In this document: piece after piece, positions 25,885 through 58,002 of the stretch
Numbering within the stretch: the first letter of the stretch is position 1
Layout: the number at the start of each line of letters is the position of its first letter
DNA from: Eledone cirrhosa
Lineage: Eukaryota
Assembly (NCBI GenBank): GCA_964016885.1
Contig: OZ024747.1
Coordinates: forward strand, 16,492,001 to 16,556,000
DNA: 64,000 bases
Direction: 5' to 3'
Made by a program: the position numbers and the translations under genes
The notes under the pieces: model-generated
Databases searched by the model: none
What the model saw: the letters and a program-made list of their open reading frames with translations, nothing else
Told to the model about the DNA's origin: nothing

Positions 25885-25920
<36 letters not shown>
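25752..25920. repeat. (GAT)n/(CAA)n/(TAA)n trinucleotide tract, target of the downstream retroelements
   Basis: Direct observation. Confidence 0.95.
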
Positions 25921-25921
<1 letters not shown>

Positions 25922-25944
25922 TTTAAAAAAACAACAAAAAGAAA

Positions 25945-28900
25945 ACCCCGTGACCAAGAAATACCGGGATGGCGGCCGGCGGGGAATAGCCGTGTCTCTA
26001 GGGGAGAACGACCCCTCTAGTCTTGGTTGACACTCGTTCTAGAAGTGGTAACACGAAATGATTACCCCTTGGCGGATAAGGATAAAACGCGACAAAATAA
26101 AGTAAATGTCTAACGATAAAATCTCATACCGAATCGGCCGTCACCCGGGTAAAAAAGGGCCGCGTCCCTCAGAGAGGAACCAGACTGGGGTCGAAAAATC
26201 AGCTAATGGTTCAAACCTTCCCATCACTTCGGAGCTGGAGACCTCCCATAACCGGAATACTCCTACTGTTGGCCCTCCATGCTCACCACCAAGAAATCCA
26301 AAGAAAAAGAAAGAAAAATGGTCAAGGGAAGATAATAAAGAAGTCCTTGAGGCTTTCTACACTGCCATGTACTACCCATCAAATACATCGAATACAGAAC
26401 AGACATATATCAACTGGAAAAAGAAACATCCCGAAAACAGAGGCTATATTGGCAGTAACAAACTAGCCAATATACGAAGAAATATTGTAAGGAAAAAGTT
26501 ACTAACTGATATAGAAATTGATCAGATCAAGCTATTAGCACAAAGTCAGCGAAGGGAAAATGAAACATGTGTCAGTGAAAACGAGGTAAACTGTAACACT
26601 TCGAATCCCAGGGTTGGGGCGGAATCACTGGCAACAGAACAAATTAAAGAAAGGATCGAAAAAGTGGAGGGAGTGCATGCTCAGGATGAAACTCCAAATG
26701 AAAATAATGAGATCGTAAATGATAAAGAAATGAATGAGAATGAACTTGCCAACTTGAAGGATGAAATTATGATCGAATGGATGAAAATGAAAGAATCTGA
26801 TATGGGGCAACGAGACACCCTCCCTAAGATCCAGAACTCCAAACAGAACCAAAAGATAATACACAAGACTAACATAATTCTCATAAACATTATCATCACA
26901 AACAAACTAAACATTACTGATTTAAATCATCCCTATTATGCATCGGCTAAAGTCACCACTCACTTATGTGGAGTGAAGATGAAAAAAACAAAGGAATTCC
27001 CACAAGAAATCTAATTGGCAAGAGAACATCAATCGCCAAATAAACCTTCTCCGATCTGACATAGAAATTTTAACAAACTATAAAGTAGGTGAACATGTTA
27101 AACAAACTAAACTTAGAAAATTGAAAAAAAAGTACAGTATAAAATCAACATGTGACATAGACATGCTGATAGAAATAATCAAGCAAAAAGTGTCGGCCAA
27201 AGCTGCTCGTATAAGGCGCTTTGAAAAACGATCTAGATTCTATAAGGACAATAATATGTTCAAAAACAACCAAAGAAACTTCTACAGAAAAATTGGTAAG
27301 TCAACAGTAACTGCTAAATCAATACCACCCAAGGAGGAAGTGCAAGAATTCTGGGAAAAGAACTGGGCCGAAGAAAAAGTTCATAACATACATGCCCCAT
27401 GGATAGACAAACAAACGAAAGATACAGCTCATCTTGAGGAACAAATATGGGAAAATATAACAGTTGAACAGTTGCGCTTGGCTCTAAGAAAAACCAGCAA
27501 ATGGAAATCCCCAGGAAAAGACAAAATACAAAACTTTTGGATAAATGCCTTCACAGAGTCTCATGAGCTGTTAGCCCAACTTTACAATGAAATAGTTAAG
27601 GAGCCAGAAAAGATGCCATCATGGCTAGTTAACGGCATTACATTCCTGCTTCCGAAGAATGATGAGACAAACAATCCCAAAAATTACAGACCGATAACTT
27701 GCTTGACCACAATGTATAAAATGTTAACATCAGTCCTAACTGAATACACATATGACCACCTGATAACAAATGACCTATTTCCCATTGAGAAGAAAGGGTG
27801 TAAACGAGGCTCATATGGCTGTAAGGATCAGCTTCTGGTTAACAAAATGATACTGGAAGATTGTCATAATAGACACAAAAATCTATCGATTGCTTGGATA
27901 GATTATAAAAAAGCATTCGATAGTTTGCCACACAGTTGGATTGAAAAATGTTTAGAGATTTTCAAAATATCCCCCGTTGTCAGGAGGTTTTTGTCATTCA
28001 GTATGAAGACATGGAAAACGACACTCCTTTTGAATAGTGAAACAAAATCACTGGAAACTGGAGTAGTTAATATTAATTGTGGAATTTTTCAGGGTGACTC
28101 TTTATCACCGCTTTTATTCTGTATCGCACTTATACCATTAAGTAAAATGCTCAATGAAAACATGGATATAAAGTCTATGACAAACTCATTAATCACTTGT
28201 TCTACATGGATGACCTGAAACTATTTGCAACAAATAATGAACAATTGCACCGTGATGACATTAAAATGGAGTTTAGACAAAATAAAAGCGCCAAAGCAAC
28301 GTTTCTAGAAGAAAGTTGCTGAAAAGTTCAGACATTAATCTTGATCGCGGGAATGTGATAAGAGAACTTGAACAAGAGGAAACTTACACATATCTAGTCT
28401 TTGTGAAGGAGACGGAATCAAGCACTCGACAATGAGGGAAAGGATAAGGATGGAATGTTACCGAAGAGTAAGAGCAATCTTAAGAACGGAATTGAATGCA
28501 AGGAATATGATCAATGCTATAAACACGCTTGCCATACCAGTATTAACTTACAGTTACAATATCAGCAAGTGGTCAAGCACAGAGATCCGTAGGCTCGATA
28601 CAAAAAATTAGAAAATTCTTAACCATGCACAGAATGCATCACCCTAAGGCAGATATAGATAGAATATATCTCCATATATCTCCCTAGGAAAGAAGTAGGA
28701 CGGGGGTTAATCCAGTTAGATATTGCGTTGAAAACTGCAACAATTGGATTATCTACATATCTAAGGGAATCACATGATTGGATGATCAAACTCATTTTGA
28801 AACACGAAAGCATCAAAAGATCATATTCCATTACAAAAGAGGCACAAAGATACAGTAATGGACTACAAATTTCAGAAGTCCCATTTACTGCTGAAATGGA

Positions 28901-29926
28901 AAACACAGAAAAAGCAAAGCAGGTAAAAGTAACTGCAAAGAAAGAACTGCTACAGAAACTGGCTAAGAAATGGCAAGAAAAGCCTTGTGTATGGAAAATA
29001 CCCAGAGCGAGCTAACAATCCTGATGTTGACAAAACTTTAACCCATCAGTGGTTGGCATCCTCTGGACTGAAATCGGAGACTGAAGGACTGATTATATCA
29101 GCACAAGATCAGTGTCTGCCAATAAAAAATTACCAAGCCAACATAATAAAAAGTTACCAAGCCAACATAATAAAAAGTTACCAAGCCAACATAATAATAA
29201 ATGGATGCAGCCCATTATGCCGTGTATGCAAAAAACAACCAGAGACCATTGACCATACAATTTCAATGTGCAGTCCTATAGCTCCAACCGAATACCTAAA
29301 CAGGCATGACAGAGCTGCACAATACATACATTGGATAATGTGTAAGCATTTTGACCTGCCCCATCAAAAGAATTGGTGGGAGCATCAACCACCTCCCATA
29401 CTTGAAAAAGATCACATGACAATCTTGTGGAACTTTAGCATCCAAACAGACCGAAAATAGATGCAAATAGACCTGATATAATATTGAAGGACTTTAAAAA
29501 GAGGGTATGCCTGCTAATTGATATGTCTGTTCCAATAGACAAGAATGTATCTATAAAAACATTTGAAAAATTGAGCAAGTATAAGGACCTGGAGATAGAA
29601 ATTGGAAAAATGTGGAAATTGAGAACTAAAACAATACCAGTGGTTGTACGCGCTCTGGGAATGATACCTAAGGGGTCTAATGATTACTTATCGCAAATCC
29701 CAGGAAACCCGCGTATAGGATAAATACAACAGATAGTACTAATGGGAACTGCCCATATACTAAGGAAGATTCTGTCAATATAAGTACATCACAAGTCTAA
29801 ACACTAAAGATGCATGTGTGAGTATGTATGTTCTTTCTTGAACATGGCGGACCTTGTTGTCTCTTGAGGTCACTGGTTGTGACTTGGTGATAACTCGTAT
29901 GAACATAAAGCAAGATAAATGCAACT

Positions 29927-29927
<1 letters not shown>
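25945..29927 (+). mobile_element. Full-length R4/Dong-like non-LTR retrotransposon (RT + CCHC + RLE), family 1, disrupted
   Basis: ORF 26106-29783 with frameshifts and stops: KWKSPGKD, YRPITCL, AWIDYKKAFDSLPH, GIFQGDSLSPLLF, YMDDLKLF, CRVC..ETIDH..SMC, RHD, RPDI..IDMSVP..K..KY. Flanked by (TAA)n on both sides. Confidence 0.92.
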
Positions 29928-29960
<33 letters not shown>

Positions 29961-30214
29961 GGTCTAATGATTACTTATCGCAAATCCCAGGAAACCCGCG
30001 TATAGGATAAATACAAAAGATATTACTAATGGGAACTGCCCATATACTAAAGAAGATTCTGTCAATATAAGTACATCACAAGTCTAAACACTAAAGATGA
30101 ATGTGTGAGTATGTATCTTCTTTCTTGAACATGGCGTACCTTGTTGTCTCTAGAGGTCACTGGTTGTGACTTGGTGATAACTCGTATGAACATAAAGCAA
30201 GATAAATCCAACTG
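29961..30214 (+). mobile_element. 5'-truncated (~250 bp) copy of family 1
   Basis: Near-identical to 29674-29927; ends in (TAA)n. Confidence 0.92.
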
Positions 30215-30241
30215 TAATAATAATAATACTAATAATAATAA

Positions 30242-31835
30242 GGACTAGATAAATGCGCCAAAGCAACGTTCACCAGAGGAAAGCTGCTGAAAAGTTCAGA
30301 CATTAATCTTGATCAAGGGAATGTGATAAGAGAACTTGATCAAGAGGAAACTTACACATATCTAGGTGTTTGTGAAGGAGACGGAATCAAGCACTCGACA
30401 ATGAGGGAAAGGATAAGGAAGGAATGTTACCGCAGAGTAAGAGCAATCTTAAGAACGGAATTGAATGCAAGGAACAGGATCGATGGCATAAACCCACTTG
30501 CCATAATAGTAGTAACCTACAGTTACAATGTCATTAACTGGTCAAGCACAGAGATCCGTAGGCTCGATACAAAAATTAGAAAATTCTTAACCATGCACAG
30601 AATGCATCACCCTAAGGAAGATACAGATAGAATATATCTCCCTAGGAAAGAAGAGGGACGTGGGTTAATCCAGTTAGACATTGCGTTGAAAACTGCAACA
30701 ATTGGATTATCTACATATCTAAGGAATCACATGATTGGATGATCAAACTCGTTTTGAAACACGAAAGCATGAAAAGATCATACTCCATTACAAAAGATGC
30801 ACAAAGATACAGTAATGGACTACACATTCCAGAAGTCTCATTTACTGCTGAAATGGAAAACAAAGAAAAAGCAAAGCAGGTAAAACTAACTGCAAAGAAA
30901 GAACTGCTATAGAAACAGGATAAGAAATGGCAAGAAAAGCCTCTGTATGGAAAATACCCAGAACGAGCTAACAATCCTGATGTTGACAAAACTTTAACCC
31001 ATCAGTGGTTGGCATCCTCTGGACTGAAATCGGAAACTGAAGGACTGATTATATCAGCACAAGATCAGTGTCTGCCAACAAAAAATTACCAAGCCAACAT
31101 AATAAAAAATGGATGCAGCCCATTATGCCGTGTATGCAAAAAACAACCAGAGACCATTGACCATATAATTTCAATGTGCAGTCCTATAGCTCAAACCGAA
31201 TACCTAAACAGGCATGACAGAGCTGCACAATACATACATTGGATAACGTGTAAGCATTTTGACCTGCCCCATCAAAGGAATTGGTGGGAGCATCAACCAC
31301 CTCCCATACTTGAAAAAGATCGCATCTCAATCTTGTGGAACTTTAGCATCCCAAAAGACCGAAAAATAGATACAAATAGACCTGATATAATATTGAATGA
31401 CTTTAAAAAGAGGGTATTCCTGCTAATTGATATGTCCGTTCCAATAGACAAGAATGTATCTATAAAAACATTTGAAAAATTGAGCAAGTATAAGGACCTG
31501 GAAATAGAAATTGGAAAAATGTGGAAATTGAGAACTAAAACAATACCAGTGGTTGTACGCGCTCTGGGAATGATACCTAAGGGGTCTAATGATTACTTAT
31601 CGCAAATCCCAGGAAACCCGTGTATAGGAGAAATACAAAAGATAGTACTAATGGGAACTGCCCATTTACTAAGTAAGATTCTGTCAATATAAGTACATCA
31701 CAAGTCTAAACACTAAAGATGCATGTGTGAGTATGTATGTTCTTTCTTGAACATGGCGGACCTTGTTGTCTCTTGAGGTCACTGGTTGTGACTTGGTGAT
31801 AACTCGTATGAACATAAAGCAAGATAAATGCAACT

Positions 31836-31836
<1 letters not shown>
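30242..31836 (+). mobile_element. 5'-truncated (1.6 kb) copy of family 1
   Basis: Colinear with ~28270-29927; RLE domain open (31009-31692); (TAA)n tail 31837-31872. Confidence 0.92.
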
Positions 31837-31872
<36 letters not shown>

Positions 31873-34800
31873 GAGATAGTGCCACCCTAAAATCACCGAG
31901 AGTGATGAAATCACCGGTGTTTATGTAACCATATATTCACCTATCCTCGATAAGAGTGTTTCAATGTCGAACCTAAACAGTTCGAATAACGGTGAAGTGG
32001 AGACTGGAATGTCATGTGACAGACTCTCACCCAGCAGGTGCTCCCTGGCACAGCAGCAGGGACCTGGCTGTCAACCATATTCTGCTGGTGTCGGAGGAAG
32101 AAGAAGGAAAGGGACCAGAACCAACTGGACGAAAGAATTGAATAGTACTGTTATGCGATGTTACCTAATGAGTAGCCCCAAGCAAAAAGGCTATAGGAAA
32201 CGGATGCATAACATCTGGAACGAGATTGGTCTATTTAAATTAGATGAACAAAAATTGGCCGGGCAGGCTCGGGTAATAAGAACTAATGGGTGTATAAGCG
32301 AGCTGGAAGTGGAGGAACTGAGCAGAGAGATTAGGTTGGAAATGGAGAGTGGAGTATGCCAGACAAATGAGCCAGTGGGAAATGAATTTGAAGAGGTTGA
32401 GAGAACGGAGGAACCATCCGAAGCAGACAATGATCTGAATGTTGTAATAAATAATTGTTACTACTTTAGGCACAAGGCCAGCAATTACCCAGTGCATTAC
32501 TGGTACTTTATTTTATCGACCCCGTAAGGATGAAAGGCAAAGTCAACCTCGGCGGGATTTGAACTCAGATCGTAAAGGGACGTAACTATGCTGGAAAGCA
32601 TGGCATCCGACCTTCTACCGATACTATCAAACCACCGCCCTAATGCTGAAATAAATAATACCTGGAACAAAGATACGGCCATTGAGGAGATGAATGCTGA
32701 CGGGCTAGGACAAGATTTGGTTGATATCCTAAACTTAGTGGTAGATGAAATGAACAATGATAGTGGGAAACCTATGAACCTAAGATTTGTAGACAGGAAA
32801 AAGTTAAAAGAAACAACAGCTAAGGTAAACAAAGTCATCCCATACCTTGAGGCGAGGAGCCTTCACAGTGCAACAATATCGTCAGAGCAACAGAAAATGG
32901 GGTAAGGAAATTACTTGGCATAAAAGTGAGAGGAAACAACAAACAAGAAAGATCAGAACCTTGGTGGAAGAAACGACTGAATGGTCAAATCAGGGAAATG
33001 AGAAATGACATTAGAAAAAACATAGACACTAAAAATAGACTGGAAATAAAGTACAAAACTAGGAGGAAAAGGCTAAATAGTATCATAGAGGAACTGAAGC
33101 AACGCATTGTAGCAAAGAGTGCAAAAATTAGGCGATACGAGAGCAGAGTCAGTCAGTATAGACAGAACAGAATGTTTGACAACAACCAGAATATGTTGTT
33201 TGGACAGCTTCAAGGGAAAGAAAGAGGCAATGACTTGATCCCTGAGGCGGAACAAACTAAGACATTCTGGAGAGGAATATGATAGCAGGATGTTAAACAT
33301 AATGACCAGGCAGTGTGGATTGAGACAGTACAACAGGAGATTAATGAACAGGCACACCAACAAACTGATTTGAGTATCACAGTTGAAACTCTGAAGGGGC
33401 AGGTCAAAAAGCTAACCAAATGGAAATCACCAGGCCCAGATGGTGTGCAGGGGTATTGGATTAAAAATGTAACATCCCTCCACCCGAAACTGACAGCCAT
33501 GTTCAATGACTGCTTGATGTCAGGTGAGGTACCAGAATGGTTGACAAAAGGTACCACAGTTCTGGTAATGAAAGACCGAATCAAGGGTAATGATGTTACC
33601 AACTATAGACCTATCACATGTCTGTCCGTAATGTTGAATCTGTTGACCAGCATTGTGTCTGATGAAATCTACCATCACCTCCACACAAACAACTTGTTAC
33701 CCGACGACAGAAAGGATGCCGAAAGAAGTCCCGTGGTACAAAGGACCAGTTACTTATTGATAAGATGGTAATGTGGAATTGCAAGAGGAGACACATTGGT
33801 CTTGCCATGGGATGGATAGACTACAAAAAGACATTTGACATGGTGACTCATTCTTGGATCACCAAAAGCCTAGAGATCTTCAAGGTGGCAGATAACTTCA
33901 GACAGTTGTTGAGCAAAAGTATGAAGTCCTGGAAAACAGATTTAACATCAGCTGGAGAATCCTTGGGATGCGTGAAGATCAAGAGAGGTATCTTCCATGG
34001 AGATAGTCTGTCCTCTCTGTTGGTTGTCCTTGTCCTGATGTCCCTGACCATTATACTGCGAAAAGTGAGAGCAGGATACAAGTTGGGAAAGGGAGAGCTT
34101 ACCATCAATCACCTCCTCTTCATGGACGATCTTAAGCTCTTCGGGAAGAATGAGAAGGAGTTGGATGTGCTTGTTGACACTGTCCTTATTTTCAGCAATG
34201 ATATATGTATGCAATTTGGTATTAGTAAGTGTGGACTACTTGTGATGAAGAAGGGTGAATTGAGCAGAAGCAACGGAATCCAGGTACCAACAGGTGAGAT
34301 GACAAAGGAAATTGACACTGAAGAAGGATACAAGTATTTGGGTATTCTGGAGACTGATGACATGAAGAACAAAAAAATGAAGGAATTGATAAGATCTGAA
34401 TACATCCGGAGATTAAGGAGCGTATTAAAGTCACATCTGAACAGTAGGAATGCCATAAGTGCAGTAAATTCCCGAGCTGAGTCTAATATTAGGTACAGTG
34501 CGGGAATTCTGAGATGGAATGTTGCTGAACAAAAATAAATGGACAGGAAGACTAGGAAGCTATTGACTATCTACAACATGTTCCACAAGAGGAGTGATAT
34601 CGATATACTCTACTTAAGGAGAATGAAGGTGGAAGAGGTCTTATCAGCATAGTGGACTGTGTTCAGATGGAGAAAAACAACCTACACAAATACGTCACTG
34701 ATAGTAAGGAGCCAATGCTCAGAATTGTACTGAAGGAGAGGACAATAGACCAGGGGATGTCCAAGGAGGTAGTAACAAGGAGAAAGAGCAGCCTTCATGA

Positions 34801-35645
34801 AAAATCCCTTCATAGTACCTTCTTTGAGAAAACTGAATTCAGAGATCCACAGACATAGAACTGGTTGAAAAGAGGAGACCTTAAAAAGGCTACAGAAGGA
34901 ATGTTAAAGGCTGCGCAAGAGCCGGCCCTCAAAACGAAGTGGCTGAAACGCCATATTTACAAGGAGGAGGCTAGCCCACTGTGCAGGATCTGTGGAGAGA
35001 GAGAGAGGAGACTGTAGCTCACATTGTATCCGAGTGTAAACACCAAGCCCAGACTCACTATAAAGGCTGGAGACATGATGTGATGGGCAGGGTGATTCAC
35101 TGGCACCTATGCAAAGTAAACAATTTACCACATTCTGAGAAGTGGTATGAGCATAAGCCAGAGTCGGTGATAGAAAATGATCAGGTGCAGGTGCTATGGG
35201 ATTTTAGGATACAGACGGACAAGAAACTGGAACACAATAGACCTGACCTGGTGGTTTTGGACAAGAAAAAAAAGACCATGCCTGATTGTGGATGTGGCCT
35301 GCCCATTCGACACGAGAGTGCAAGAGAAGTAGAGGGAGAAAATGAACCGATACCAGGACTTAAAGTGGGAGGTAAAAAGGATTTGGAACTGCCATGAAGT
35401 CAAAGTGGTACCGATTGTCATAGGCGCACTAGGTACTATCTCAAAAGGTTTCCAGGGATGGTTAAAGAAAATTGGCCCCGCCCCGATTTTTGGAACACTT
35501 CAAAAGGCATGCTTGCTGGGAACAGCGAGAACCCTCCAATGCGTCCTGAAAATCTGACGCTGCAGGTAGTGGTTTGATATTCATTTCAACAAACTTTCCA
35601 GTTAACTAACATCAATGGCTGAGACTCAAGGAACAATAATAGTAA
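31873..35645 (+). mobile_element. Full-length R4/Dong-like RLE retrotransposon, family 2, disrupted
   Basis: ORF pieces 31964-35557: [80 protein letters not shown]. Degenerate TAA tail. Confidence 0.92.
32456..32641 (-). mobile_element. SINE family A inserted in the family 2 ORF, with 18-bp TSD
   Basis: TSD AATGTTGTAATAAATAAT (32438-55) and AATGCTGAAATAAATAAT (32642-59). Confidence 0.9.
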
Positions 35646-57475: not shown

Positions 57476-57938
57476 CTCAGTCATTGATGCTATTCAACAG
57501 GGGAAATTAACCAGATGAATATTAAGTGTTCCAAAATAGATGGCCAGCCTTGGAGGTTCTTAGTGACGATGAGTGTGACCTGGATGTTTTGTCCGTCTTA
57601 AATATTTTCCAGTTCCTACTTTAGATCCTGGTAACAGTTTAATCATTCCCTCTTCTTTTCTTGCACTCCTTTATGATCAACCAATATTGTTTTCTTTGTC
57701 AAAAGTCATCAGATCGGATCCATTGTGTTACAATTCTTATTATGTTTGTATAATGACATTTCGCCGAACCTTTCCTATCACTGACTCTGGCTTATGATCA
57801 CACCACTTCTCAGAGTGTGGGTAAACCATCCACTTTGCATAAATGGCAGCGGATCAATTTTTGCTATGATATCATACCTCTATTCCTTATAATGAGTCTG
57901 GGCTACGTGTTTACAATCGATTATGATGTGGAACACAG

Positions 57939-58002
<64 letters not shown>

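Follow-up and report, generated by a model that had tools for sequence, protein, structure and literature searches.

The locus analysed here raises the question of what a structured RNA is doing immediately ahead of the open reading frame (ORF) of a LINE. Within a 64,000-nucleotide stretch of Eledone cirrhosa DNA (the window), a first-pass annotation had described a pseudoknotted leader at the 5' end of a Dong-like element and suggested that it might be an undescribed processing ribozyme or, as a fallback, an RNA for translation initiation. The element, family A, is a 5'-truncated and frameshifted copy at 25908–29961 (approximate boundaries; this and all features below are on the + strand unless noted), flanked by a TAA microsatellite on one side and its own TAA tail on the other, with the AUG of its single ORF at 26106–26108. 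Another family A copy encodes an intact ORF of 1,216 amino acids. The protein has a reverse transcriptase (RT) domain as well as a CCHC finger and restriction-like endonuclease (RLE) motifs, both spotted by eye, and R2 proteins are its best matches among the solved structures of the PDB. Family A copies are inserted into TAA repeats and also carry a TAA tail. The features of an R4/Dong-type RLE LINE, namely a single ORF with RT, CCHC and RLE, a TAA target and a TAA tail, are thus all present, and it is on these, rather than on an RT tree of named references, that we class the host element as R4/Dong-type.

Family A is young: the 40 best scorers among 1,552 candidates show 100% identity across 25944–26110, and the core pattern of one pseudoknot (PK2, below) matches 1,115 places in the element's own genome. 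It is a very active jumping gene. Behind its TAA tail, two more family A 3' fragments (29961–30240 and 30242–31870) are stacked head-to-tail, and the same stack (window 29930–35560) includes a truncated element of a second family, B, from ~31872. A diverged RLE-type C-terminal fragment, 31% identical to family B, lies on the minus strand at 57544–57939. Elsewhere, seven copies of the older G-C subfamily (below) stand in tandem at a spacing of ~4.9 kb (G000:C2:353612554-353642046). In the youngest subfamily (L001–L030), ~50 nt at roughly −300 to −250 relative to the AUG match an abundant short repeat at its 3' end, a repeat that we take to be SINE-like; this match is missing from most older copies, and some copies are joined to the repeat at that point.

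All helix segments listed by the first-pass annotation are present where it had placed them. Its picture of the fold was incomplete, having missed the stems of one pseudoknot (PK1), another pseudoknot (PK3) and the most conserved part of the structure, which lies inside the ORF. PK1 (25946–25993), like the other pseudoknots below a predicted fold, consists of P1 (CCCCG 25946–50/CGGGG 25980–84) stacked on P2 (CCGG 25964–67/CCGG 25976–79), with the P2 loop (25969–73) paired to 25989–93. This last pairing had been recorded as a simple hairpin, GATGGC/GCCGT; it is instead the loop-pairing arm of PK1. In PK2 (26000–26040), a stem (26000–04/26012–16) presents the loop AGAACGA (26005–11) to TCGTTCT (26034–40), with a small hairpin (26020–22/26029–31) in between. 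A further hairpin, GGTAA/TTACC (26047–26066), holds an upstream AUG (−48) in its loop, and PK3 (26067–26090) has a stem (26067–70/26078–81) whose loop (26072–74) pairs with 26088–90 across an A-rich linker. Descriptors of these pseudoknots were matched in 2 of 200 shuffles for PK1, in 1 of 300 dinucleotide shuffles for PK2 (5-bp stem plus 7-bp Watson-Crick loop pairing) and in 15 of 300 shuffles for PK3.

The PK2 loop pairing, which the first-pass annotation had correctly picked out, is not only rare in shuffles but also compensated in an older own-genome subfamily (184 copies), which has G-C in place of the window's A26007-U26038. A count by eye of these two positions among the first 100 listed of the 1,115 matches gave 84 A-U, 15 G-C, 1 G-U and 0 A-C, and one A-C copy (L047) was seen outside that set; the 15 G-C copies go back to a single historical event. 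In contigs from related runs, too, positions 26007 and 26038 had changed together. Relative to the window, the common differences of 30 older copies are the compensated pair, five unpaired positions and an A-run slip affecting the first base of P1. Searches by pattern for older subfamilies in the own genome yielded decayed or single-mutant copies only.

A profile of the N-terminal domain retrieved 23 metagenome loci from about 10 lineages, 40–65% identical over the best segment. The window's upstream architecture is common to two lineages, one represented by L127 and the other by L138, L139, L140 and L146: PK1 and PK2 occur in 2 of the 10, as does PK3, and the remaining lineages, together with an old own-genome family (C), have different, structured leaders. 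Over four distinct sequences from three lineages, 91.7% of PK1 cells are paired, and in 3 of 12 pairs both partners have changed, with P1 position 3 being C-G, A-U and G-C in the three lineages. In the L138 group the PK1 loop pairing is offset by a single base, and neither L127 nor L146 passes the strict PK1 descriptor. PK2 has a different 7-bp loop pairing on a 3-bp stem in the distant L139; in L127 the test for the 7-bp pairing failed, and ~5 bp are possible by eye. For PK3, all 21 cells in three distinct sequences are paired and 2 of 7 pairs are compensated. At the place of GGTAA/TTACC, L127 has, by eye, a hairpin of unrelated sequence. The claim that a pseudoknotted RNA precedes the LINE ORF is borne out, since it is conserved by compensatory changes in homologues.

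The outer 9-bp helix that the first-pass annotation had drawn around this region (25951–59/26021–29) fared less well. It is possible in family A and exceeds chance in the window (1 of 2,000 shuffles, for segments picked post hoc), but the homologues do not support it: the same segments reach 6 bp in L127 and 5 bp in L139, at chance level in both (784 and 1,488 of 2,000 shuffles). It also competes with the small hairpin GTC/GAC, which by eye has a counterpart in L127 and L139. We regard this outer helix as unconfirmed. An apparent second PK1 copy in the L138 group can alternatively be read as a pair of simple pseudoknots, and we left it out of the counts.

Further searches gave no relatives in the viral contigs scanned, one spurious match in the prokaryotic genomes scanned, and 2 and 0 matches in word-index protein searches. 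Several leaders among L134–L141 contain repeated GGAGAAGG..AACTC blocks upstream of their pseudoknots, similar to a motif in RTE-clade 5' UTRs. Family C (L154–L172) has another structured leader in the ~190 nt before its AUG, with some compensatory changes among copies, and carries the same module inside its ORF.

This in-ORF module comprises two further pseudoknots. In PK4 (26137–26165), a strongly covarying helix (26137–39/26158–60) is crossed by 26143–47/26161–65; in PK5 (26167–26212), a 7-bp stem (26167–73/26184–90) with 6 of 7 pairs compensated encloses a loop (26177–82) that pairs with 26207–12. The underlying alignment, of the window, metagenome loci and family C, is gap-free over 21 sequences and 115 columns. 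RNAalifold recovers the two nested helices from it, and a column scan adds the pair 26177/26212, which occurs as four Watson-Crick types. With all four helices, 81.6% of 441 cells are paired, compared to 30–39% in slid controls, and both partners have changed in 12 of 21 pairs (in 50 cells, where shuffles give 16.3); the model is partly derived from the alignment it was scored on, and relatedness is not taken into account by the shuffle control. Of the four, the two crossing helices are less secure than the nested ones, because 26143–47/26161–65 is mostly invariant, which weakens its support, and 26177–82/26207–12 is paired in only 63.5% of cells, its middle two pairs being usually open. RNAalifold also offered pairs 59-60/88-89 in alignment A3, paired in 19 and 18 of 21 sequences with no both-side changes, which we did not adopt. 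A slippery AAAAAAG (26147–53), which could have pointed to frameshifting, is missing in most homologues.

Among 12 lineage representatives, codon positions 1, 2 and 3 of the in-ORF region are conserved at 0.83, 0.82 and 0.81, and the encoded amino acids vary. As the three positions are equally conserved, the constraint on the module acts at the nucleotide level. The motif is found in 21 of 23 metagenome loci, the other two lacking that part of the element, and it is better conserved than the UTR pseudoknots. It is confined to one protein subclade and is absent from family B, whose protein is 39% identical. Compensatory changes in each of PK1 to PK5, and equal codon-position conservation over variable amino acids, speak against the pairings being fortuitous and the conservation being that of a peptide or a DNA promoter motif. 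We consider this reading very improbable and already largely refuted, even granting that the in-ORF region is CpG-rich, that the UTR modules rest on three lineages and that the nested-only fold is not more stable than shuffles (z = +1.04). The z-score is little informative for pseudoknots, which ViennaRNA is unable to score.

Where LINE ribozymes are known, cleavage falls at the 5' junction or upstream of it, as has been shown for Dong of Bombyx (PMC3774820). An end-forming ribozyme should have its cleavage site at the 5' junction of full-length copies. To map 5' ends, we placed 108 loci (one copy twice) on a full-length copy; 30 had been chosen by protein, and most of the other 78 for holding the structure, a choice that under-samples cuts downstream of the fold. 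Full-length copies start sharply at −1147/−1146 from the AUG (26 of the first 60 loci), and other family A copies extend upstream of the window copy's junction. The UTR fold thus occupies the final 160 nt of a long 5' UTR and lies ~1 kb into the full-length RNA; it is not the element's 5' end. As 26 of the 30 protein-picked loci run past −200 (3 begin inside the ORF, and the remaining one is the window copy, ending at ~−198), the RNA copied by the element is mostly uncut at the fold. Junctions peak at −1147, with no peak within 5 nt of P1 (−160), where no BLAST junction fell in any of the 108 loci. This pattern argues against an end-forming ribozyme at the fold, and with it the first-pass idea of a 5'-end processing ribozyme is disfavoured.

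A minority of junctions lie close to PK1: 8 of 108 loci break at −198 to −173, a few possibly as near as ~−165, and L127 starts directly at PK1 after a TAA run. These ends would fit pseudoknots that block 5'-3' exonucleases, or that stabilise a shortened mRNA starting just upstream of PK1, and a stem with its loop pairing downstream resembles the topology of xrRNAs. However, the −198 to −165 stretch is A/AAT-rich and target-like, its junctions lack exact resolution, and comparable clusters occur at further AAT-like spots (−250, −465 and −760), so that microhomology explains them. No third helix of a flavivirus-type junction was seen and Rfam gave no match. We think a nuclease-blocking role unlikely.

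As to the true 5' end, L014 exemplifies full-length copies with a base-precise start at −1147, first letters GGGAAG. No ribozyme was detectable at this end, which is likely a transcription start; some Dong-type elements, then, begin at a sharply defined base and have no detectable HDV-like ribozyme. The leaders of families A and B share an inverted-repeat block (83% identity over 98 nt) as well as a TATA-like box followed by conserved bases (81% over 37 nt), at about −600 to −440 from the AUG in the L014/L081 leader and at 652–749 and 1135–1171 in the L082 leader. These two modules suggest a shared or exchanged internal promoter.

We also compared the fold with catalogued RNAs. Rfam 15, a check that the first-pass annotation had called for, gave no credible match and no ribozyme family for the region or the whole leader (E-value mode) or for 11 homologue loci (gathering threshold). 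A strict HDV descriptor (nested double pseudoknot, G1, 3-bp P3, L3 YYYHCGY, a G(G) following P1 and the catalytic C preceding P2), run with no positive control, scored 0 matches across the window region, the full leader and 14 leaders of homologues; a loose version had only implausible ones. Fits to HDV on both strands were rejected, among them one with P1 at 25994–26000/26040–46, which has a 2-bp P3 and no valid P2. Short motifs for the hammerhead, pistol and hairpin cores were not found, and twister-like fragments were isolated. The earlier statement that the fold does not fit HDV, hammerhead or twister therefore agrees with both descriptor and Rfam tests. No description of the structure turned up in Rfam or in the paper listings and abstracts searched, and an earlier mention elsewhere is possible. 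The fold is real and, it seems, uncatalogued: a structured RNA akin to the structured 5' RNAs of RLE LINEs, and not a 5'-end ribozyme.

One module might instead belong to an undescribed class of self-cleaving ribozymes and act in a fraction of the transcripts. Dong of B. mori and R4 of Ascaris carry 5' ribozymes, according to the same source (PMC3774820), PK1 combines P1/P3-like stacked geometry with invariant unpaired bases, and PK4 and PK5 have invariant unpaired residues as well. Against this, most copies retain the 1 kb upstream without a junction peak, a cut within PK4–PK5 would remove the AUG, and PK1 departs from HDV in starting with C and having a purine-rich loop and no P4. With the descriptor and Rfam tests negative too, we hold such an activity to be quite unlikely.

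The position of the module relative to the start codon points elsewhere. In all 11 proteins matching the encoded peptide (158 examined; two from one cluster), Met lies 8–10 codons before a conserved Arg, which places the beginning of the first in-ORF helix 31–37 nt after the A of the AUG. A conserved structure at near-fixed spacing from the start codon, as expected of an initiation element, is thus found, with two exceptions: L131 lacks an AUG in frame ahead of the module, and in P0033, noticed by eye among proteins that the pattern missed, Met is only 3 codons before Arg. Upstream AUGs number 11–15 in five of five full leaders, two of them inside the structure. Many upstream AUGs disfavour plain scanning. 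A TATA-like box lies at −469, and a downstream promoter could shorten the leader, leaving 5–6 AUGs still in place.

The compensated pairings, the position ~1 kb inside the transcript, the upstream AUGs and the near-fixed distance of the in-ORF module from Met together support the first-pass fallback of a translation-initiation RNA. We put at roughly one half the probability that the five-pseudoknot chain (~−160 to +107) is a cis-acting initiation element for the LINE's own ORF. In such a model, the chain would bring the ribosome to the element's own AUG and set it in place there, behind a leader rich in upstream AUGs. PK1 to PK3 would be where the ribosome lands for internal entry or shunting; PK4 and PK5 might halt the small subunit so that the AUG sits in its P site, in the manner of the alphavirus downstream loop. 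The fixed spacing could alternatively reflect an N-terminal peptide or protein-binding geometry.

The main rival reading takes the chain as a platform to which the element's own protein binds and which controls RNP assembly or second-strand cleavage during integration. In its favour, the 5' RNA of R2Bm has the same place (UTR end and ORF start) and a pseudoknot and is described in a review as regulating integration (PMC12203849), the element's protein finds its best solved-structure matches in R2 proteins, and the module is restricted to one protein subclade. Yet a platform alone leaves the narrow AUG spacing unexplained, there is no similarity to any R2 family in Rfam, and most genomic copies are 5'-truncated but integrated nonetheless, an argument that bears on the template and not on the bound RNA. 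We regard it as a possible but doubtful alternative to initiation; the two roles are not exclusive, and both may hold.

A broader scenario, which we offer tentatively and would expect to fail somewhat more often than not, is that this R4/Dong subclade lost its 5' HDV-like ribozyme, gained a long promoter-bearing leader and uses the pseudoknot array as a new class of internal-initiation element. The in-ORF pair would set the start, interchangeable UTR pseudoknots would recruit the ribosome, and the same RNA may double as a protein-binding integration switch. The RNA is compact and backed by covariation, and its defined helices, natural compensatory variants and many intact copies make its roles testable by simple assays.

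Several known systems resemble the chain in part. The dicistrovirus IGR IRES and the upstream pseudoknot domain of tobamoviruses, the latter in the 3' UTR, likewise set several pseudoknots in a row and are linked to translation; the chain differs from them in its AUG start, its nesting and its lack of an Rfam match. The HDV-like ribozymes of Dong (B. mori), R4 (Ascaris) and R2 share with it the element clade and a pseudoknotted RNA in the 5' region, as that source has it (PMC3774820), and PK1 shares their stem-on-stem geometry with a loop pairing 3' of P1. In contrast to them, the fold here is internal and has no G1, pyrimidine-rich L3, P4, catalytic-C joint or junction peak. Alphavirus downstream loops lie 27–31 nt after the AUG and work best at 25 and 34–40 nt (PMC4872096). 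They too are coding-region RNA structures ~30 nt after the AUG at conserved spacing, but each is one long stable hairpin, whereas the retrotransposon has a predicted pair of pseudoknots with short helices.

A further close system is the R2Bm 5' RNA, reportedly characterised in work of Kierzek 2009, Moss 2011 and Christensen 2006 that a review summarises. That review describes a pseudoknot at the ORF start, suggested to act in initiation, and states that conservation of the motif 'still needs to be explored' (PMC12203849). Our data bear on whether this RNA has counterparts outside silk moths, and on how single-ORF (RLE) LINEs translate their protein. Compared by the review's description, both are structured RNAs with a conserved pseudoknot at the ORF start of an RLE non-LTR element, with proposed roles in initiation and integration control; the one described here differs in belonging to an R4/Dong-type element, in having no Rfam match, in spreading five small pseudoknots across UTR and ORF, and in using a true AUG at near-fixed spacing.
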